A stretch of DNA of 53,192 bases from a bacterium (lineage in GTDB: Bacteria > Patescibacteriota > Minisyncoccia > Moranbacterales > UBA9337), in the NCBI GenBank assembly GCA_021159185.1, contig JAGGSH010000010.1, forward strand, positions 1 through 53,192. The letters run 5' to 3'. The notes under the pieces were generated by a model. It was given only the letters and a program-made list of their open reading frames with translations, had not been told where the DNA came from and did not search any database. A program made the translations under genes and the position numbers. Of this stretch, positions 4,640 to 53,192 are shown piece after piece; position 1 is the stretch's first letter; every line of letters starts with the position of its first letter.

Positions 4640-4842
4640 TGTCATTCCGGAAAATTTCGGAGTGGAACGGAGAAATTTATCCGGAATCTAAATCTATTGT
4701 CATTCCGGAATTTTCCGCAGTGACAGCGGAGGAAAATATCCGGAATCTACGCCTTCAATTATCTCACGCTTAGGATTCTAACAATCCTAGATTCCGGATA
4801 TTTTTTCTTCCACTTCGTTTCAGAAAAAATTCCGGAATGACA
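4640..4842. repeat. REP/REPIN-like palindrome family A: half copy (4640-4690) plus full dimer (4698-4842)
   Basis: TGTCATTCCGGAA...ATCCGGAATCTA-spacer-TAGATTCCGGATA...TTCCGGAATGACA. Confidence 0.9.
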
Positions 4843-4876
4843 AATGAGAAACAAAACATGTTGTAAAATTCAATAT

Positions 4877-13100: not shown

Positions 13101-13247
13101 TGTCATTCCGGAAAATTTCGGAGTAGCAACGGAGAAATTTATCCGGAATCTACGCTTTCATTTATCTCATGTTTAAAGATTTTAATTAACCTAGATTCCG
13201 GATATTTTTTCTTCCGCTGTCGCTCCAGAAAAAATTCCGGAATGACA
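13101..13247. repeat. REP/REPIN-like palindrome family A
   Basis: TGTCATTCCGGAA...TTCCGGAATGACA dimer with conserved spacer. Confidence 0.9.
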
Positions 13248-16992: not shown

Positions 16993-17931
16993 CTACAAAT
17001 TCATTATCAAATTTTCCAGCGCCAACCGTCCGTTAGCGTTGGTGTTTTTAAGTTTTTCCATACTATCTTCCAGTTTTTCAATAATTTTAAAAAAACGCGA
17101 AGCATTCTTAAAATCTTTTATCGCGCCTGAATGCATAATCCAAACCCAAAACTCCAGTTTTTTAATTGCCTCCGGAATATTTTTGGAAAATTTCTCCGCC
17201 ATCTCCATTCTCTGGGCGATATTCATAGCGGAAATCTTTTTCAATTCTTTCAGCGCGCTCTCGCGCGAATGAAGCTCTTTCTTATTCCGCGCTATTTTAA
17301 CCGCCCAGCCCGGGCGGCCGGCTGAAAAAGATATAATTTTATCCTTGGAAATTAAATCTTTGGACAAAAATTCCGGATCATTTAAAAGCTCCTCAATCTC
17401 GCCATCCGCCACTAAATTAAACCTGATTTTCTGGCAGCGCGATTTTACCGTGGGAAGCAGTTTGCCTTCCTCGTGAGTTACCAAAATAATAATAGAAGTT
17501 TCATTAGTCTCTTCAATAGTTTTAAGCAAAGCGTTCTGAGACGCCTTGTTCATTTTATGAGCGTTGTCAATTATAAGCGCGCGGTAATTTCCTTGAGACG
17601 GAAAAAGCGACATTTCTTTTTGGACTTCTCTAATCCTTTCAATTTTTATTTCCCTTTCTTTCGTTACTTCTTTTTTTTCTTCAACCTCAGGCTTTAAAAT
17701 AATTAAATCTGATAAAAACTTTTTATTCTCGCCACGCTTGCCCGCGCTTTCGTCTTTTACCATATTATGTAATATGGTAAATTTTTTCCCACTTATTAAA
17801 CTTTTGGCAAATTTTTCCGCCAGCGTAAATTTTCCCACTCCCTCCGGACCGGAAAAAAGATAAGCCTGGGCAACTTTATTTTTCTCAATGCTCCGACTTA
17901 GCAATTTAATAATTTTTTGATGGCCGACCAT
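16993..17931 (-). CDS. holB: DNA polymerase III delta' subunit
   Basis: AQAYLFSGPEGVGK, SQNALLKTIEE, LLPTVKSRC. Confidence 0.9.
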   Translation of the reverse strand: MVGHQKIIKLLSRSIEKNKVAQAYLFSGPEGVGKFTLAEKFAKSLISGKKFTILHNMVKDESAGKRGENKKFLSDLIILKPEVEEKKEVTKEREIKIERIREVQKEMSLFPSQGNYRALIIDNAHKMNKASQNALLKTIEETNETSIIILVTHEEGKLLPTVKSRCQKIRFNLVADGEIEELLNDPEFLSKDLISKDKIISFSAGRPGWAVKIARNKKELHSRESALKELKKISAMNIAQRMEMAEKFSKNIPEAIKKLEFWVWIMHSGAIKDFKNASRFFKIIEKLEDSMEKLKNTNANGRLALENLIMNL

Positions 17932-17959
17932 AATAGAATAGTGATTGGTAACTAGCTAT

Positions 17960-18099
17960 TGTCATTCCGGAATTTTTTGAGCGATAGCGAGAAAAATATC
18001 CGGAATCTAAAATTGTTAAAATCTTTAAGCTTGAGATAATTGGAAGCGTAGATTCCGGATAAATTTCTCCGTTTCTCTCCGAAATTTTCCGGAATGACA
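17960..18099. repeat. REP/REPIN-like palindrome family A
   Basis: Same termini; spacer in the opposite orientation to the 4698 and 13101 copies. Confidence 0.9.
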
Positions 18100-20575: not shown

Positions 20576-21583
20576 TTACTTAGACATTGCTATTGCCTGT
20601 TTGTATGTTTCCAGATTGTCCAGTATTTTGCCCGCTCCCTTAGCTACGCAAAGCAATGGATCATCGGCTGCATAGCAGGGAACATTAATAGTTTTAATAA
20701 TTAGCTGGTCCAGATTTTTAAGCAAGGCGCCGCCGCCCGAAAGAATCATTCCCTTATCCATAATGTCCGCCGCTAACTCAGGAGGCGTATCTTGTAAAAC
20801 TTTTTTTATAGCGTTAATAACCGCTCTCAGCTCATCCTGCAGCGCTTCAGTTATTTCATTGGAAGAAACTTTCACTGTTTTAGGCAGCCCTCCCGTCAAA
20901 TCACGCCCTTTGATTTCCATATATTCTTCTTTTACTTGCGCGATGGCCGAGCCGATTTTGATTTTAATTTCCTCCGCCGTCCTTTCCCCAATCGCCAGGC
21001 CATGTTTCCTCTTCATATAATCGGAAATAGCCTGGTCAAATTTATCGCCGCCCACTCTCGCGCTATTAGCCGCCACTACTCCTCCCAACGAAATAACCGC
21101 AATCTCTGAAGTCCCTCCCCCGATATTGATAATTGCGTTGCCTTGAGGATTATGAATGGGAATGCCCGCGCCTATAGCCGCCAATAGAGGCTCCTTTACG
21201 ACATAAGCCTGCTTAGCGCCGGCTTTTATAGTCGCGTCAATTACCGCTCTTTGTTCAGTGGAAGTTACTCCCGCCGGGATAGAAACCATGACTTCCGGAC
21301 GAACCAGCCTAATTCTTCCGCTGGCTTTGTTGATAAAATATTTAAGCATCGCTTCCGTAATGCGATAGTCGGCAATTACTCCATCCCTAAGCGGACGGCT
21401 GGCGAAAATAGTGTCGGGAGTGCGCCCCAGCATTTCCTTGGCTTCATTGCCCACTGCCAGCACTTTATTTTCAGCCAATGAAACCGCCACCACCGACGGC
21501 TCGTTTATTATCACGCCTTTCCCGGGAACAAAAACCAGCGTATTAGCCGTGCCTAAATCTATTCCGATTTTGCGAATTAACAT
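20576..21583 (-). CDS. mreB: Rod shape-determining protein MreB
   Basis: IGIDLGTANTL, PLRDGVIAD, GGGALL. Confidence 0.97.
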   Translation of the reverse strand: MLIRKIGIDLGTANTLVFVPGKGVIINEPSVVAVSLAENKVLAVGNEAKEMLGRTPDTIFASRPLRDGVIADYRITEAMLKYFINKASGRIRLVRPEVMVSIPAGVTSTEQRAVIDATIKAGAKQAYVVKEPLLAAIGAGIPIHNPQGNAIINIGGGTSEIAVISLGGVVAANSARVGGDKFDQAISDYMKRKHGLAIGERTAEEIKIKIGSAIAQVKEEYMEIKGRDLTGGLPKTVKVSSNEITEALQDELRAVINAIKKVLQDTPPELAADIMDKGMILSGGGALLKNLDQLIIKTINVPCYAADDPLLCVAKGAGKILDNLETYKQAIAMSK

Positions 21584-21601
21584 ACGATTTTTCTCAAAAT
21601 T

Positions 21602-22275
21602 TTAATTCATCAAAACTCTTCTCTTGCTTCTTTTATTAAATCTATCCAAAAACATTTTATTAAATTTCAATTTTTCTTTAGCAATTTTCTTTCCCGTTTT
21701 CGCATGCATTAAAGAATAAAGCTTCTTATTTTTTATTTCATATTCATAATAAACGCTGTGAAACTTATTATTCTTAATTCTGCCATTTCTTTTGCCTCCC
21801 TCTAAATTAAATTTTATATAATCTCGAAGTTTCATCTTGGGAAAAATATTGGCATTATTTCTTCCCAGCCACATACCCGCTCTCATAATCACAATCGCTC
21901 CCAATGAATCCAGCTTATCCGCGTCAAATAATATTTTAGCTTCAATAATCTTTGGCTTTTTGTTTGTTTTATATCTATGGGCTAATATGCAGTGCTTGAT
22001 TTTTTCTATTTTATTTTTATTTTTAAAATTTTCTCGCCCATCTTAGCCAATTCTTCAGTATGGCAAATTTTTCCGGTTGTATCATTATCCTCTTTTATTC
22101 TTCCAATATCATGAAGAAGCGTTGCTGTTTTTAAAATATCCAGATCAACTTTGCTTTTCTCCTCTTTAGCCAGTCTTAATGCCATATTATAAACTCGCAT
22201 CATATGATCAAAATTATGCGCGTTGCACTTTAGCTCTTTTTTTTGCAATTTTAAATATTTTCCTGACAATTTCAT
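21602..22275 (-). pseudogene. HD-domain phosphohydrolase, frameshifted near 22010
   Basis: AHNFDHMMRV and LLHDIG in one frame; IEKIKHCILAHRYK...LFDADKLDSLGA continues in another frame after an A-rich run. Confidence 0.8.
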
Positions 22276-22346
22276 TTCATTATTTTGAAATAAGTGCTAG
22301 TTAAAACTGTTTGCATTATAGCATTATAGCATTATAGCATTATAGC

Positions 22347-22374
22347 ATACTACCTTATGTAGTTGAATGGTAGT
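22347..22374. repeat. 28-bp conserved imperfect hairpin, copy 1
   Basis: ATACTACCTTATGTAGTTGAATGGTAGT. Confidence 0.9.
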
Positions 22375-22441
22375 GCTAATAATTTCTTACTTGATAGCTG
22401 AACAGTGGCCCATCTGCTAAAATTTGGCGAGAGCAAAAGAA

Positions 22442-22852
22442 TTAAAGCCCAAGTAATTCTTTTAAAAATCTATGCTGGGGATAACGATCCAAAAGACTTC
22501 CACTTTCATGACTATTCGTCTTTTTTTTCTTTCTTTTGTCTTTCTCTAACCAGCTTGTCAATATTTTTCTATAAGCTCCTTCTCTGGCATTTAACCACTT
22601 TTCCACACCGCTTATTGATTGATAGCTCACTTTTAATTCTTTTCTTATTTCTTCATAACTTTTATCATCTATTAATTTTTTAGCTATTTGGACTCGGCGA
22701 GCAAGCATTAAAGATTCACTGGGGGTAAGCAATCCAATAAAAAAATCTATTATTTCTTGTTTCAACCTTAATCCGGAAACTATATCAAAAAAATCTCCAA
22801 CTTGCCGCATTCTTTCTTTTTTGGATATGGAATAAATTTTTACTTTAGACAT
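22442..22852 (-). CDS. TrpR-like (YerC/YecD) helix-turn-helix protein
   Basis: LLTPSESLMLARRVQIAKKL..SYEEIRKELKVS. Confidence 0.88.
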   Translation of the reverse strand: MSKVKIYSISKKERMRQVGDFFDIVSGLRLKQEIIDFFIGLLTPSESLMLARRVQIAKKLIDDKSYEEIRKELKVSYQSISGVEKWLNAREGAYRKILTSWLEKDKRKKKKTNSHESGSLLDRYPQHRFLKELLGL

Positions 22853-22888
22853 GTTTCAATATTTTAATTTTACAGTGATGCTTTCACT

Positions 22889-22916
22889 ATACTACCTTAT
22901 GTAGTTGAATGGTAGT
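22889..22916. repeat. 28-bp conserved imperfect hairpin, copy 2
   Basis: Identical to copy 1. Confidence 0.9.
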
Positions 22917-22954
22917 GTAGTTGTGATTTTGTTATGCTTTTTTTGTTTGGTTTT

Positions 22955-23278
22955 TTATTTAAATTCCAAAACTCTATATTTTCCATTTTTTAGCTTTTTC
23001 TTTTTTCGGTTCATTATTTTTTTGTGCTTTTTCCAAAAAGCTTTGTCAATTTCTTTCGGCGAAACACCCAAACTCACAAAATTACCCAGCACTAAATTCA
23101 GTAAATCTATATTTTCCTCTATCACATTCTCGCGAGACTTACCCTTAGTAATAGCTTGAGCTAATTCTCCCAATTCTTCAATCAACAAATTCAGCCGAAA
23201 AGTCATATCCTCGTTATTAGTTCCTTTCATCTTGAATTTCCTGTGAAATTTCGCAGTGGCGTCGTAATATTTTTTCAT
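22955..23278 (-). CDS. MazG-like nucleotide pyrophosphohydrolase
   Basis: LIEELGELAQAI...EENIDLL (EExxE...EExxD). Confidence 0.8.
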   Translation of the reverse strand: MKKYYDATAKFHRKFKMKGTNNEDMTFRLNLLIEELGELAQAITKGKSRENVIEENIDLLNLVLGNFVSLGVSPKEIDKAFWKKHKKIMNRKKKKLKNGKYRVLEFK

Positions 23279-23346
23279 AATAATATGGCAAACTAATAAT
23301 GCAATCCAATATTTACTTTATTTTCTTATTCTTCATTAATGCTACA

Positions 23347-23374
23347 ATACTACCTTATGTAGTTGAATAGTAGT
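23347..23374. repeat. 28-bp conserved imperfect hairpin, copy 3
   Basis: ATACTACCTTATGTAGTTGAATAGTAGT (1 mismatch). Confidence 0.9.
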
Positions 23375-23412
23375 CTAGTTATAATTTCACCATTCTACGA
23401 ACAGCGCTTGCG

Positions 23413-23880
23413 CTACTTTCCATGTCTTACATTTTCCAAATATTTCCCCGCTGATTTTAAAATTCTTTTCGGTCCCCTGTAAGTTATTTTTTTCATAGCC
23501 TCTTCGTATTCTAGCCATTCCCAGCCGATATGCTCAAAGGAAATTTTTACTTTTCCTGTTTCGGTTTTAGCCAAATAATAAATAACTTTTTTGAAAATAT
23601 TAACACTTATTCCTGCCCTCGTTCTTTTTTCCTTCTCCTCTCCCTTGGCTCGGTAAAAATAATAAACATGTTTCTTAAAATCAGGCAAAATTTCCAAATC
23701 GCTTATGCTTGTTTCTTCTAAAACTTCCCTTCGCAAAGCCTGTTCTTCACTCTCCCCTTCCTCAATATGCCCCTTGGGAAAATCCCAATGGCCGGATTTG
23801 TAATGAAGAAACAGAAAATAAATTTTATTTTTATTCCGCCTAAACACCACGGCGCCGGCAGATTTTTCAAAACAAAACAT
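23413..23880 (-). CDS. NUDIX hydrolase (Ap4A hydrolase-like)
   Basis: EKSAGAVVF, HWDFPKGHIEEGESEEQALRREVLEET Nudix box; start set at MFCF. Confidence 0.9.
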   Translation of the reverse strand: MFCFEKSAGAVVFRRNKNKIYFLFLHYKSGHWDFPKGHIEEGESEEQALRREVLEETSISDLEILPDFKKHVYYFYRAKGEEKEKRTRAGISVNIFKKVIYYLAKTETGKVKISFEHIGWEWLEYEEAMKKITYRGPKRILKSAGKYLENVRHGK

Positions 23881-23891
23881 AATATATAACT

Positions 23892-26546
23892 TTATTTCCC
23901 GCAACATTTTTTATATTTTTTTCCGCTTCCGCACGGGCAAGGATCATTGCGTCCCACTTTATTTTGATTAATGATGGGTTTTGAAGGCGCAGCTTTTTCA
24001 CTCCCTCCTTGTTCACTAGACTGCGCTTTTTTAATCGCGCCAAATTGTTCCACCTGCCCACCTGATCCCTTGAGCTGCCAACTACTTTCTTCTATCTGTT
24101 CAACTGGCTGAGATTCTTGAGAAATATAAGCAACTTTGAATATAGTATGAATAATAGTAGATCTAATATTATCCATCAAGCGAGTAAATAAATTATAGGC
24201 TTCCCTCTTGTATTCAACCAGCGGATCTTTTTGCCCATAACCGCGTAATCCGATTCCCTGCCTTAAATAATCAATCTCATCTAAATGATTCATCCAGATA
24301 GTATCTATAGTTCGCAACATTATTATTTTTTCAACGCGACGCATATTTTCATATCCTATTTCTTTTTCCTTTTGCGCGTAAGCCTTTTTAGCCAGTCCCG
24401 CCAAACATTCAACTAATTTACTCACTTTTTGCGCGTCATCTTCTGATTTATCGGAAGATATCTCTTTTAGATGTCTTCTATCTTTTTCTTCCAAAGGAAA
24501 TATATTATTAACATTCGCCAAAATTGTTTTCATATCCCATTCGCATCCTTGAACATCGCACCGGACAGAAACAATTTTTTCCAGTTCTTCAATAATATTA
24601 TTTAAAACTAGATTTTTTGTGTCATGGCTGGATAAAATTTCTTTCCTTTTTTTATACACCACTTCCCTTTGCTTATTCATTACATCGTCATATTCCAAGA
24701 TATGCTTTCTGACATCAAAGTTAAATCCCTCTATTTTTGACTGGGAACCTTCAATAGTTTTTGAAATAATTTTATTTTGGATCGGCTGGTCTTCCGGCAA
24801 ACCCAGAGTATTCATCATATTTTTCAGCTTGTCGCCGCCGAATCGCCGCATCAATTCATCTTCCAAAGAAACATAAAACTGCGACATGCCAGGATCTCCC
24901 TGCCGTCCCGCGCGCCCGCGCAATTGATTGTCAATGCGCCGAGCCTCATGCCGTTCCGTTCCGATGATATAAAGTCCGCCCAGTTTTTTCACTCCTTCTC
25001 CCAGTTTTATGTCAGTCCCTCTTCCCGCCATATTGGTAGCGATAGTCACCGCTCCGCGCTCTCCGGCGCCGGCAATGATAGGCGCTTCTTTCTCATGCTG
25101 CTTAGCGTTCAAAACTTCATGCTTAACTCCTTCTCGTTCCAATAAAGCGCTTAGATATTCTGACTTTTCAATAGCTATTGTTCCCACCAAAACCGGTTGT
25201 CCCGTATGATTAATTTTTTTTATAGTTTGAGCGATGGCTTTAAATTTTCCTTCCTCGGTTTTATAAATCACATCGGGCAGATCTTTTCTCGTCATCGGCT
25301 CATTAGTGGGAATCTCCAGCACTTCCAACTCATACACTTTATTAAATTCTTCCGCGCTGGTGATAGCCGTTCCCGTCATTCCGGAAAGCTTTTTATACAT
25401 TCTAAAATAATTCTGAAAAGTAATAGTAGCCAAGGTTCTTGACTCCTTTTGCACCGCCACACCCTCCTTAGCTTCTATGGCCTGGTGTAGCCCTTCACTG
25501 TAACGCCTTCCCTCCATAAGTCTTCCAGTAAAATCATCCACGATAATAACCTGTCCGTCTTTTACGATGTAGTCGCGTTCTCGTTTGAAAAGGGCGTGGG
25601 CTTTGAGCGATTGCTCCAGATGATGCACATAGCTTATTTTTTCCGGATCGTAAATATTTCCCATCCCCAGAGTCTTTTCCACATTGGAAATTCCCTTGTC
25701 GGTTAAGGTAATCGCTTTCATTTTTTCATCAATTTCATAATCAATATTCTCTTTGAGCCGCGGGACAATTTGGGCAAATTTTTGGTAAAGCTTGGTTGAC
25801 TCAGAATCGGGAGCGGAAATAATTAAAGGCGTCCGCGCCTCATCAATTAATATGGAATCCACTTCGTCCACGATGGCAAAATTCAATTCCCGCTGAACCA
25901 TTTGCTCCAAACTTTGCGCCATATTGTCCCGCAGATAATCAAAGCCGTATTCATTATTAGTCCCGTAAGTTATATCCGCGCTGTAAGCTTCTCGGCGGCT
26001 TATTGGAATAAGATTTTCTTCTTCCACGCTCACCTCATCATCATCTATAATTTTAGGCTCATACTTATAAGATATGTCGTGCAAAATACAAGCGGTGCTT
26101 AATCCCAGAAAATGAAAGATTGATCCCATCCAATTGCAATCTCTTTTAGCTAAATAATCATTGACGGTTATTATATGCGCTCCCTTGCCTTCCAAAGCGT
26201 TAAGGTAAATCGGCAAAGTAGATGTCAATGTCTTTCCTTCTCCCGTTTTCATTTCGGCGATTTTTCCCTGATGTAAAACTATGCCGCCTAACAACTGGAC
26301 ATCATAGTGCCGTTCGCCAATGACTCTCTTGGCCGCTTCCCGCGCCACGGCAAAAGCCTCTGGCAAAATGTCATCCGGAGATTCTCCTTTTTTTAAGCGG
26401 TTTTTAAAATCTTCTGTTTTATTTTTCAGTTCACTGTCTGAAAGTTTGGATATTTCACTTTCAAGAGAATTTATTTCTTTTACGATTGGTTGAAGTTTTT
26501 TAATTTCTCTTTCATTGGAACCAAAAAGTTTTTTAAGCAATTGCAT
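23892..26546 (-). CDS. secA: Preprotein translocase SecA
   Basis: AEMKTGEGKT, IVDEVDSILIDEARTPL, C-terminal SEC-C GRNDPCPCGSGKKYKKCCG. Confidence 0.99.
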   Translation of the reverse strand: MQLLKKLFGSNEREIKKLQPIVKEINSLESEISKLSDSELKNKTEDFKNRLKKGESPDDILPEAFAVAREAAKRVIGERHYDVQLLGGIVLHQGKIAEMKTGEGKTLTSTLPIYLNALEGKGAHIITVNDYLAKRDCNWMGSIFHFLGLSTACILHDISYKYEPKIIDDDEVSVEEENLIPISRREAYSADITYGTNNEYGFDYLRDNMAQSLEQMVQRELNFAIVDEVDSILIDEARTPLIISAPDSESTKLYQKFAQIVPRLKENIDYEIDEKMKAITLTDKGISNVEKTLGMGNIYDPEKISYVHHLEQSLKAHALFKRERDYIVKDGQVIIVDDFTGRLMEGRRYSEGLHQAIEAKEGVAVQKESRTLATITFQNYFRMYKKLSGMTGTAITSAEEFNKVYELEVLEIPTNEPMTRKDLPDVIYKTEEGKFKAIAQTIKKINHTGQPVLVGTIAIEKSEYLSALLEREGVKHEVLNAKQHEKEAPIIAGAGERGAVTIATNMAGRGTDIKLGEGVKKLGGLYIIGTERHEARRIDNQLRGRAGRQGDPGMSQFYVSLEDELMRRFGGDKLKNMMNTLGLPEDQPIQNKIISKTIEGSQSKIEGFNFDVRKHILEYDDVMNKQREVVYKKRKEILSSHDTKNLVLNNIIEELEKIVSVRCDVQGCEWDMKTILANVNNIFPLEEKDRRHLKEISSDKSEDDAQKVSKLVECLAGLAKKAYAQKEKEIGYENMRRVEKIIMLRTIDTIWMNHLDEIDYLRQGIGLRGYGQKDPLVEYKREAYNLFTRLMDNIRSTIIHTIFKVAYISQESQPVEQIEESSWQLKGSGGQVEQFGAIKKAQSSEQGGSEKAAPSKPIINQNKVGRNDPCPCGSGKKYKKCCGK

Positions 26547-26603: not shown

Positions 26604-26747
26604 TGTCATTCCGGAATTTTTTCTGTAGCATAGCGAAAGAAAAAATATCCGGAATCTAGGATTGTTAAAATCTCTAGGCTTGAGATAATTAAAAGCGCAG
26701 ATTCCGGATATTTTCTCCGCTGTCGCTCCGAAAATTCCGGAATGACA
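26604..26747. repeat. REP/REPIN-like palindrome family A
   Basis: Same termini and spacer family. Confidence 0.9.
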
Positions 26748-26832: not shown

Positions 26833-29259
26833 CTATTTTCTTATCTTTACACCCAATTCTCTTTCTAAATCAGCGGCAATTTTTTCCATCAGCGCGTCCG
26901 CTTCTTTACTTTCCAATGTTCTGTCAGCTGATCCAAAAATAATATGAAACGCCAGACTTTTTTCGTTTTCTTTCTCGTTTTCAAAAATATCAAACAAGTC
27001 AACATCCAAAACTAAATTCCCTCCGGATGCTTGAATGCTGGATAAAACATCGGATATTTTGACGCTTTTGTCAACAATCATTGAAATATCTCTTACGATG
27101 GTCGGATATTTGCTAATAGGCGCGTATTCTCTTTCTGTTTCTGAAATTTTTTTGAGTTCTCCCATATCAAATTCAAACATCGCCACTCTTTGCCGAATGC
27201 CAAATTGGGCCAACACGAAAGGATTAATTTCACCTAAATATCCTACGGCCTTTTCGCTGCCTTCAATTTTTATTTCCGCGCTGCGGCTTTCGTGCCAAAG
27301 CGTTCGAAAAGTCTCCAGCGGGCTGGAATTAAAATCATCATAGTATTGTCCCATCACTCCCAACCGCGAGAGCAAATGGTCAACATATCCTTTTGCCAAA
27401 TAAAAACCTTCCGCTCCGCTATTTTCTCCTTTTTTTGAAGAGTTCATAACTACTGCCCCAACTAACACTATTTTTTCCTCCGGTAAAACTTCACTGTTCG
27501 GCCAATATACCCGCCCAACCTCAAAAATATTAAATTCCTTGTAATTCCTCAAATTATCCCTGATATTTTTAAGTAAATTAGGAATTAAACTTATCCTCAT
27601 CAAGGCTTGATTTGGATTCATGGGATTTTTCAGCTCTAAATGTTTTATAGTCCCTAACCCCGCCAATCCGGCGTCTTTAACGCCGTAAAACGAATAATTG
27701 CAGACTTCCAAAAATCCGCCGCCAGCTAAAATGTTTTTAACTTCTCTTTCAAACATTTTCTGATCATTGGCTTTGGCCGGCTTTACGGGAGCCAGCGGCG
27801 GACGCGGCTTTATTTTTTCATAGCCGTAGATTCGGCCTATTTCTTCAATTAAATCTTCCTGCGTCTTTAAATCAATTCTAAATGTTGGAATCTCTGCCTC
27901 AACTCGTGACTCGTGACTCGTGACTCGTAACTCAAGATTTTCTAATATTTTTTTAACAATTTTAGGAGAAATATCCTCTCCCAATAATCTGTTTAAATAA
28001 GCCAAATCTAATTTTATCTTCCACGGTAAAACTTTTTTTGGATAAATATCTTTCACGGATTCTAATTTCCCGCCAGCCGTTTCCGAAATTATTTCAATTA
28101 ACCGCGCCATTCCTTTCTCCGCCAGATTAGGGTCAAGCTCTCTTTCAAAACGGTCGGATGATTCAGTTTTAATTCCCAGCCGCATCCTGGTTTTCCTGAT
28201 TAACATTGGGTTAAAATTGGCCGCTTCCAAAAATATATTTTTTGTTTTTGGGTTAACTCCGGAATCCAAACCTCCCATAATTCCCGCGATAGCCAGCGCC
28301 TTTTCACTGTCCGCGATCACCAGATCATCTTCCATTAATTCCGCGATAGATTCGTCCAGTAATTTTATTTTTTCGCCTTTTTTAGCATTTCTAATAAATA
28401 TACTAGGAATTTTGGATTTGGGATTTGGGATTTCCATTGTTTTGATTTTTCCAAAATCAAAACAATGGAGCGGCTGTCCCAATTCCAGCATCACATAATT
28501 AGCCGCGTCCACCACATTATTAACGGGACTAATTCCGCAAGTTATCAGTCGCGACTTAATCCAACTGGGCGATTCTTTAATTTCAATATTTTTCATAACC
28601 GCTCCGATATATCTCGGACATAATTCTTTACTTTGAATTTCAACTTTAATTTTATCAGTTTTCGCGGATGGCATTTTTAATCCTTCGTAATCATAATCAA
28701 ATTTTTTATTTTCCAGCGCGCAAATTTCCCGCGCTATTCCGATATGGCTTAGCGCGTCATGCCCGCGATTGGACAAAATATCCAAATCTATCATCGCATC
28801 GTCAAGTTTCAGGGCTTCAGCTAAATTCATTCCCGGCCTTAATTTTTTATCCAATATTAAAATTCCGCTATGATCGCTTCCTAGTCCTAACTCGTCTTCG
28901 GCGCAAAGCATCCCATAAGATTTCACGCCCCTAATTTCCGCTTTTTTTATTTTTAATCCCCCCGGGAGCTTAGCTCCCGCCAGCGCCACCGGCACTTTCT
29001 GCCCAATCGCTATGTTATAAGCGCCGCAAACGATATTTAATTTTTTGTTTTTTATATCCACTTTCACAACCTGCAATTTGTCCGCGTCAGGATGCTTTTC
29101 AATCCCCACTATCTTCCCGACGACAACTTTATCCAAATTCTTTCCCGTTTTTCTAATCTCCTCCGCTTCAAAAGCGCGCATCGTCAAAAGCTCCGCCAAT
29201 TTCTCCGGAGATAATTTCGTTCCTGATAATTCTTTAAGCCAATTATAGGAGTAACGCAT
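26833..29259 (-). CDS. pheT: Phenylalanine-tRNA ligase beta subunit
   Basis: KHPDADKL, NVVDAANYVMLELGQPLH, DLIEEIGRIYGY, ferredoxin-fold C-terminus. Confidence 0.98.
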   Translation of the reverse strand: MRYSYNWLKELSGTKLSPEKLAELLTMRAFEAEEIRKTGKNLDKVVVGKIVGIEKHPDADKLQVVKVDIKNKKLNIVCGAYNIAIGQKVPVALAGAKLPGGLKIKKAEIRGVKSYGMLCAEDELGLGSDHSGILILDKKLRPGMNLAEALKLDDAMIDLDILSNRGHDALSHIGIAREICALENKKFDYDYEGLKMPSAKTDKIKVEIQSKELCPRYIGAVMKNIEIKESPSWIKSRLITCGISPVNNVVDAANYVMLELGQPLHCFDFGKIKTMEIPNPKSKIPSIFIRNAKKGEKIKLLDESIAELMEDDLVIADSEKALAIAGIMGGLDSGVNPKTKNIFLEAANFNPMLIRKTRMRLGIKTESSDRFERELDPNLAEKGMARLIEIISETAGGKLESVKDIYPKKVLPWKIKLDLAYLNRLLGEDISPKIVKKILENLELRVTSHESRVEAEIPTFRIDLKTQEDLIEEIGRIYGYEKIKPRPPLAPVKPAKANDQKMFEREVKNILAGGGFLEVCNYSFYGVKDAGLAGLGTIKHLELKNPMNPNQALMRISLIPNLLKNIRDNLRNYKEFNIFEVGRVYWPNSEVLPEEKIVLVGAVVMNSSKKGENSGAEGFYLAKGYVDHLLSRLGVMGQYYDDFNSSPLETFRTLWHESRSAEIKIEGSEKAVGYLGEINPFVLAQFGIRQRVAMFEFDMGELKKISETEREYAPISKYPTIVRDISMIVDKSVKISDVLSSIQASGGNLVLDVDLFDIFENEKENEKSLAFHIIFGSADRTLESKEADALMEKIAADLERELGVKIRK

Positions 29260-40847: not shown

Positions 40848-40858
40848 GGTTTTTTACT

Positions 40859-41013
40859 TGTCATTCCGGAATTTTCCGCAGCGATAGCGGAGGAAAATAT
40901 CCGGAATCTAGGATTAAGTTGTAGCGACATTTAAGTTAGTTGGTTATTTCATTACGCGTAGATTCCGGATATTTTTTCTTACGCTTCGCTTCAGAAAAAA
41001 TTCCGGAATGACA
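40859..41013. repeat. REP/REPIN-like palindrome family A (divergent spacer)
   Basis: Same termini. Confidence 0.9.
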
Positions 41014-52752: not shown

Positions 52753-52866
52753 TTCAGCCAATTTCTCTCTTTTTTTATCCAAGATAATGTCTGGATGTCC
52801 TTATGTGGTTATGAGGACATCTTGATTTTAATTGCAAAAAACAAAAAAACGGTGGAAAATATTTTA

Positions 52867-52894
52867 ATACTACCTTATGTAGTTGAATGATAGT
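52867..52894. repeat. 28-bp conserved imperfect hairpin, copy 4
   Basis: ATACTACCTTATGTAGTTGAATGATAGT (1 mismatch). Confidence 0.9.
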
Positions 52895-52900
52895 ATTAAG

Positions 52901-52954
52901 AAAACAAAAAAACGGCAAATACTTTAGCGATACATATCGCCGAAGTATTTGCCG
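52901..52954 (-). terminator. Intrinsic terminator
   Basis: CGGCAAATACTT...AAGTATTTGCCG stem followed by a T-run on the minus strand. Confidence 0.7.
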
Positions 52955-52970
52955 AAAAAAATAGAATGCA

Positions 52971-53135
52971 TCAGCGAACTGATAGTTTTAAATGCTTTTC
53001 CACTCTCACTAATCTTATCTCAAGTTTTTTAACATAATCCAAGTCAACTTTTTTTGTTAAAATATTCTTTAAACTTTCAATTTCACTTCTTATTGACAAA
53101 ACTTCCGCCTCAATTCTGTCAAGGCGATTATTCAT
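52971..53135 (-). CDS. Small coiled-coil protein (54 aa), possibly a gene remnant
   Basis: Manual translation MNNRLDRIEAEVLSIRSEIESLKNILTKKVDLDYVKKLEIRLVRVEKHLKLSVR*. Confidence 0.5.
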   Translation of the reverse strand: MNNRLDRIEAEVLSIRSEIESLKNILTKKVDLDYVKKLEIRLVRVEKHLKLSVR

Positions 53136-53192
53136 TCACTACATTCAAACATGAAAGCCCCTTTTTGATATACTAGAGCGTTAACTTTTAAA

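Follow-up and report, generated by a model that had tools for sequence, protein, structure and literature searches.

A 26-bp dyad that brackets TrpR/YerC-like genes in Patescibacteriota is likely their binding site and has likely been recopied behind other genes

Between secA and mreB of a Patescibacteriota genome, a 26-bp dyad brackets a long TrpR/YerC-like gene. We think it fairly probable that the dyad is the binding site of the encoded protein and that it has been recopied behind other genes, where its copies mark the breakpoints of gene swaps and duplications. The observations that carry this argument are the bracket itself, site subtypes that belong to individual paralogues, matched spacers, lineage-specific solo copies, empty alleles that are free of sites, and one exact and one near-exact breakpoint. 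The 53,192-nt stretch of DNA analyzed here (the window) belongs to a genome of 0.94 Mb in 42 contigs that is 96% complete (G000). It was compared with a same-genus genome (G001) and with other genomes (G numbers), loci (L numbers), contigs (C numbers) and five sequencing runs with contigs (X1-X5).

The genes of the interval lie on the minus strand. Behind secA come a NUDIX hydrolase gene (23413..23907; PF00293), a MazG/PRA-PH-like gene (22955..23278; PF01503 and PF03819), the TrpR/YerC-like gene (22442..22852, 136 aa; Trp_repressor, PF01371) and an HD-domain pseudogene (21602..22275; PF01966), and these Pfam matches confirm the identities originally predicted. The HD gene is in two pieces: an 89-aa ORF runs into stops, and a 100-aa ORF (21602-21904) corresponds to the C-terminal half of an intact HD homologue. 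The repeated element had been described as four near-identical copies in one orientation, and a scan of the window duly returned exact matches at 22347, 22889, 23347 and 52867, all on the plus strand, with no further match at up to three mismatches and none in 100 shuffled windows. Copy 1 (22347..22374, 26-bp core 22349-22374) lies 67 nt behind the stop codon of the TrpR-like gene; copy 2 (22889..22916, core 22891-22916) lies 38 nt before the start of that gene and 38 nt behind the MazG-like stop; copy 3 (23347..23374, core 23349-23374) lies between the NUDIX and MazG-like genes; and copy 4 (52867..52894) is a solo site 116 nt behind a 730-aa ORF. Seven copies were found genome-wide within two mismatches, three of them on contigs other than that of the window. 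The exact motif was found in 0 of 60 relatives and once among GTDB genome contigs (L030). Viral contigs held 50 matches to the 16-nt core, none with at least 5 of 6 arm pairs, which we read as chance; the single peptide pattern used found no relative of the TrpR-like protein in them.

The conserved unit is a 26-bp dyad in a 10-6-10 arrangement with a 6-bp spacer, which replaces the 6-bp arms around a 14-nt asymmetric centre that had been proposed. Folding did bear out that the flanks lengthen the pairing in copies 1, 2 and 4, and flank pairing is above chance at positions 2-5 (0.62/0.56/0.50/0.47 vs 0.36/0.32/0.31/0.29). The hairpins are weak: folded as single strands of DNA, the four copies reach only -3.2 to -5.7 kcal/mol (z -0.8 to -2.9). 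Four tandem 8-bp repeats (22313..22346, plus strand) abut copy 1; they complement the other flank, and their minus strand can be read as a series of extended -10-like motifs. The predicted spacing of 38 bp behind the upstream stop holds for two copies, and the third stands at 67 nt. It is not a conserved feature: the distances in G001 are 72, 15 and 46 nt and the median over 71 downstream sites is 16 nt, so we attribute it to chance.

The TrpR-like protein matches PF01371 with 49.9 bits (cut-off 27) and the YerC-YecD family TIGR02531 with 40.2 bits, just below the cut-off of 42.2. Its predicted model (pLDDT 87.6) displays the TrpR fold, a long helix and a low-confidence C-terminal helix with the motif RYPxH; the protein is the putative cognate binder of the dyad. 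The best structural matches are 6ejw (Z 10.4, rmsd 2.2 over 98 residues) and 3g1c (Z 10.3, rmsd 2.7 over 96), followed by a match at Z 5.6, in a search that barely tests residues 118-136. A modelled four-copy complex scored 0.36, where the mark is 0.42. We considered the conserved C-terminal Tyr as a catalytic residue and rejected it, as it is Phe in 10 loci with paired sites.

The bracket recurs well beyond the window. From 155 distinct proteins, 16 were set aside for short flanks or length, leaving 112 complete loci of long TrpR-like genes and 27 short homologues. With a site profile trained on the same long loci that it scored, and with loci that are kin and overstate independence when counted, a site was found upstream of 69 long genes, downstream of 71 and on both sides of 61. 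A pair was found at 1 of the 27 short homologues, at 0 of 100 control genes and in 1 of 1120 shuffled flanks. The remaining 51 of the 112 long loci are without a scored pair, and the profile misses some long loci (e.g. L269 and L284). Close site pairs enclose TrpR-like genes at unrelated loci, and the bracket is also present in other families of the phylum (10/301 genomes at E 1e-25). Within the order, a degenerate pattern matched 30 of 301 genomes and its reversed control 4. PF01371 matches occur in 127 of the 301 genomes, with 1-7 copies each; they occur in 22 of the 29 other pattern-positive genomes compared with 126 of 300 overall, these genomes being kin and not independent. Seven of the 29 have no PF01371 match, so sites either outlive the gene or do not need it.

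All four TrpR-like paralogues of G000 are bracketed, each by its own subtype of site (7, 12, 6 and 2 copies at up to four mismatches), and the site arms change with the paralogue. At the 61 paired loci, the two spacers are identical and direct in 41, identical and inverted in 9, and within one change of each other in 58, compared with a mean of 6.5 and a maximum of 14 when spacers are paired at random. Across 40 nearest-protein pairs, 179 columns changed in concert (61 of them in spacers) and 5 changed in a position-specific manner. The make-up of the spacers is non-random, so their identity could in part reflect selection for tandem dimer binding. Sites are also found amid duplications and flipped spacers (L228, C18 and L212). 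In G000 C18:11750-12900, about 120 nt are duplicated on both sides of the paralogue, and the spacer plus two bases is repeated up to three times within a site. L228 corresponds in locus to the C5 paralogue and encodes an identical protein; seven copies are present there, along with duplicated segments and spacers that are flipped. The array at L211 has four sites and includes, besides a TrpR-like gene, an intact HD homologue and one more gene, and site-gene-site arrays are present in L096 and L121 as well. One more subtype, which has among its forms a symmetric one with two identical arms, is present at C3:302 and C17:22357 of G000, where no cognate gene was found; it brackets TrpR-like genes in L210 and L212.

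The original prediction had offered, as its alternative, that the element is a site for the TrpR-like protein. Judged from sequence comparison, this appears to be its better-supported half, with a bracket at 61 of 112 loci and a subtype for each paralogue, and the dyad is likely the cognate operator of the TrpR-fold protein that it brackets. The protein resembles HisR (YerC of B. subtilis) and TrpR in its PF01371 match and TrpR fold (PDB 3G1C, 3FRW, 3KOR and 6EJW). The site shares with theirs a palindrome with a 6-nt spacer before the protein's own gene (here at 69 of 112 long loci), the spacer length being that given where PMC9413887 sets out the HisR consensus. It differs in that the protein here is 130-190 aa long, has a C-terminal extension and forms its own branch; the site is 26 bp with another consensus, flanks the gene on either side and also turns up at scattered gene ends; there is no his or trp regulon; and several paralogues per genome each have their own subtype. 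The short homologues form a branch of their own (23 of 27 in a FastTree tree of 145 columns with many open forks). A HisR-type box lies upstream of 18 of these 27 and downstream of 2, and 8 of them precede one family that we read as HisG-like. The short HisR-like regulators at L143 and L149-L162 have canonical boxes upstream and often stand ahead of the HisG-like gene, in a group of genomes usually thought to be without amino-acid synthesis.

We asked whether it would suffice to see the sites as ordinary operators of a repressor that controls itself and a small regulon, their copies made by point mutation and selection and their coincidence with breakpoints explained by their being the last conserved DNA of the gaps. 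The predicted TrpR fold, the HisR-like 6-nt spacer geometry, the position of upstream sites (median 30 nt before the start), the extended -10-like repeats that abut copy 1 and the upstream boxes of 18 of the 27 short homologues all fit such operators. We nevertheless regard this explanation as unlikely, given that downstream sites are retained even where a convergent gene follows (e.g. L108, L120, L157 and L257), that the concerted changes far outnumber the position-specific ones (179 vs 5), and that a single locus can hold up to seven copies with duplicated segments. Nor are target genes conserved: the long genes have 74 upstream neighbour families at 106 loci and 81 downstream families at 105 loci, and no recurring target gene was found among these neighbours. 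The placement and polarity of solo sites, described below, also argue against plain operators.

Gene content between the copies varies among relatives, as had been anticipated: G001, L208 and a contig of run X3 each differ from the window. G001 has the order secA, NUDIX, site, MazG orthologue, site, a different 171-aa TrpR-like gene, site, mreB, with the HD gene absent, and here the TrpR-like gene belongs to another clade and the sites in all three gaps to another subtype, in reverse orientation. At L208, where the TrpR-like protein is 92% identical, the two sequences remain colinear through all of copy 1, as far as its left edge (22347). Beyond that base the HD pseudogene gives way to a different NUDIX gene, in a slot that is empty in G001 and in the X3 contig. 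The likeness returns 7 nt before the mreB start, and just one side of the swap is marked by a site; L208 also has a 9-nt indel at the corresponding edge of copy 3. We have one such exact breakpoint, and conserved motifs of any kind can resemble a boundary. A second, looser breakpoint separates G106 and G094 without delimiting a clean cassette, and in G094 a site persists in decayed form, together with a different gene. A separate family of palindromic repeats, found at many places in the genome (among them 4788-4843, 13179-13247, 17958-18009, 26604-26747 and 40852-41013), has a copy between secA and NUDIX in L208 and none there in the window.

The X3 contig (1017 nt) joins NUDIX, MazG and mreB through 28 and 14 other letters and has no site, TrpR-like gene or HD gene; copy 3 is thus missing from this allele. 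A contig of run X4, from another study, has the same NUDIX-MazG joint. The X3 allele differs from the window at 22 positions over 320 nt of MazG and at 19 over 495 nt of NUDIX (93-96% identical) and is nearer to it than L208 (87%), so loss of the gene and all three sites would be the simplest history. We considered the 28-nt junction as site flanks minus the core, and discarded this for its faint resemblance in a stretch that is too short and AT-rich. In genus g55, 4 of 9 genomes have the gene and two sites between the same two genes, the empty alleles are site-free in 5 of 5, and the module ends do not fall at sites. The gap behind lysS (gene name as read; lysS-tagD-like) is filled in G001 and site-free in G000. 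A gene exchange that ends exactly at the motif was seen at the copy 1 edge in L208, and the empty alleles of X3 and g55 keep no site. The MazG-like gene is present at this locus with or without sites and is therefore no cassette. The NUDIX hydrolase is a resident gene too, and no cassette: it lies near the secA end in 6 of 20 family loci read, 5 of the 6 in genomes without the pattern. Interval content thus varies among relatives, yet MazG and NUDIX are found without sites, and these genes are independent of them. The gap behind glyS (as read) holds a site-bracketed TrpR-like gene and a 314-aa gene in G001 C14 (L319), and in G000 (C2:60030-60480) a short ORF flanked by tandem 9-mer repeats, which we take to resemble a four-helix-bundle suffix protein. 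Different repeat-flanked genes alternate in this one slot.

These alleles bear on the other half of the original prediction, an attC- or pdif-like site for one-gene cassettes, which we do not retain in view of the site-free empty alleles, the resident MazG and NUDIX genes, the weak hairpins and the absence of a fixed 38-bp spacing. In its strongest form, an unlinked tyrosine recombinase on contig C1 (XerA/XerD-like or integrase-like) would act on the sites with the TrpR-like protein as an accessory factor. The genome does encode two tyrosine recombinases, and the 28-bp size and 6-bp spacer, the spacers identical within pairs, the single-gene arrays between sites and the exact breakpoint in L208 are all as such a system would have them. 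The recombinase genes are, however, on a different contig; the arms follow the TrpR-like paralogue rather than a conserved recombinase; there is no site in the empty alleles (X3 and X4 contigs, lysS-tagD-like gap, 5/5 in g55); and no copy-to-copy joint was found in the X1-X5 contigs, which drop rare variants. We consider this explanation improbable. In what PMC13141974 reports of pdif modules on Acinetobacter plasmids, sites of about 28 bp with 6-bp, matching spacers have single genes between them and alternate in orientation, whereas the sites here are chromosomal, 41 of 61 pairs are direct, the arms vary with the bracketed protein and empty alleles are site-free. The integrase-like protein at L002 (contig C1) has TIGR02249 as its best match, with 213.6 bits, below the cut-off of 265. 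Integron cassettes are small accessory genes separated by one repeated element (attC) in one orientation, with IntI as the integrase. The window shares the single-orientation repeat between small genes, and an integrase-like gene is present elsewhere in the genome, but the site is too short for attC, folds weakly, keeps no fixed distance behind the stop and has one attC-like core per copy within ~80 nt (7/7 copies), and the genes also occur without sites. A dif-like scan with an XerD-arm pattern, which may differ from the site of this lineage's own Xer-like enzyme, gave many weak matches, none at the copies.

Sixty-five sites were not scored as neighbours of a TrpR-like gene; their positions are tandem gaps (40), convergent gaps (9), ORFs (7), divergent gaps (3) and edges (6), classes that come from crude ORF calls and include two L118 rows actually adjacent to a TrpR-like gene. 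This preference for gene ends and coding loops, and the lack of recurring target families, agree with the original view that the element is no simple promoter operator. Solo sites of G001 and G000 are missing or decayed at orthologous positions in both directions, and the slots that lack a solo site in the orthologue hold unrelated repeats. Sites also lie in frame within variable loops of pheT and of a gene read as clamp-loader-like; a related site at 17756..17781 (plus strand) is in frame in the variable loop of the latter gene (16993-17931) and is not in the G001 orthologue. Rickettsia palindromic elements are likewise present in frame in variable protein loops; the element here is much shorter and is tied to a cognate protein gene. 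One surface loop of PheT (L288, L289, L114 and L307; window pheT 26833-29259) is occupied by different repeats: by the element in genus g55, by a GC-rich palindrome in G073, and in the window by a sequence that we read as heptamer repeats. At L351-L354 (G218, G085, G256 and G276), the downstream site provides the start codon of the next gene and so a new N-terminus, and in G085 and G256 another GC-rich repeat is inserted inside the downstream site.

Polarity relative to the local gene is common to 12 of 14 solo G000 copies (p 0.013), a count that omits four convergent-gap copies, the TrpR-adjacent clusters and subtype 4 and becomes 12 of 16 if the two convergent-gap copies at the window end are counted against the long gene. 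The promoter scan gave 10 matches against 10.0 in shuffles, and no dominant -10 position was found around the sites. A polarity that tracks transcription, the median distance of 16 nt behind the stop and the above-chance flank pairing could also be explained by RNA-level hairpins behind genes, terminators or stabilizers that spread by copying from gap to gap and whose link to the TrpR-like gene would be historical. We hold this to be very improbable: the subtype folds weakly (as computed for DNA, not RNA), no terminator-like site was found in 21500-24000, and the arm sequence is conserved across the phylum and changes with the protein.

Copy 4 had been placed between convergent gene ends. It does lie behind the 730-aa ORF, and its right-hand partner is merely a 54-aa ORF (52970-53134) near the contig end. 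The corresponding gap in relatives holds a site (G046) or a TrpR-like gene (L209, G001 C114). The window has a further solo site at 52794..52819 (plus strand), with the subtype and spacer found around the C18 paralogue. An unrelated perfect palindrome (52924-52951), which recurs in nearly identical form on C13, C15 and C24, lies 30 nt past copy 4, so three repeat families meet in one gap. A 53-nt stretch (53140-53192) ends three contigs (the window, the end of C22 and the start of C26) and recurs at L228:2319-2370, behind the last site; leading into the 54-aa ORF, it suggests a multi-copy small gene that travels beside sites.

Returning to the dyad as a binding site that is recopied, we propose that a TrpR-fold dimer would bind it and repress its own gene, perhaps via looping of the two flanking sites. 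The gene and its sites may enter and leave gene-end gaps as one unit, and sites would decay or vanish after loss of the cognate gene. A strand-biased copying process, not encoded by the module, would homogenize and spread the copies; template switching or repair at the protein-bound site is its most likely form and would also yield copy-specific flanks, flipped spacers and tandem repeats. The cassette-like look of the window would then arise because the resident subtype filled three successive gaps while accessory genes were exchanged beside a site.

Such behaviour has a parallel in REP/RAYT (REPIN) systems, for which PMC3686654 describes a gene flanked by cognate palindromes, class-specific scattered copies, class switches at orthologous loci and decay of copies where the gene is missing. 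Flanking cognate palindromes, class switches and lineage-specific scattered copies are found here too, at low copy number. The cognate protein, however, is a predicted TrpR-fold DNA binder and not a Y1 HUH transposase; there are merely 2-12 copies per subtype; the gene often changes position; and there is no stable hairpin with a 5'-foot tetranucleotide, GTAG lying inside the 3' arm. The suggested search for a recombinase or HUH transposase turned up the two tyrosine recombinases on C1, and no match to the Y1 transposase family PF01797 in the 96% complete G000. We found no published description of a TrpR-like gene/palindrome system of this kind in the open-access literature. It is conceivable, though we lean against it, that a non-catalytic TrpR-fold protein and its dyad constitute a minimal self-spreading system in Patescibacteria, in which the bound site recruits a host enzyme that copies it into new gene ends and opens the DNA at its edge.

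If the module does spread itself in this way, the sites would offer accessory genes programmable points of entry into genomes that are otherwise poor in mobile elements. The dozens of natural pairs, in which the 26-bp site changes with the protein, offer a testable protein-site code in uncultured Patescibacteria. REP/RAYT-like behaviour, with cognate repeats, class switches and decay after gene loss, would here proceed without a transposase, and points to an undescribed route of short-repeat spread and accessory-gene exchange in very small genomes.
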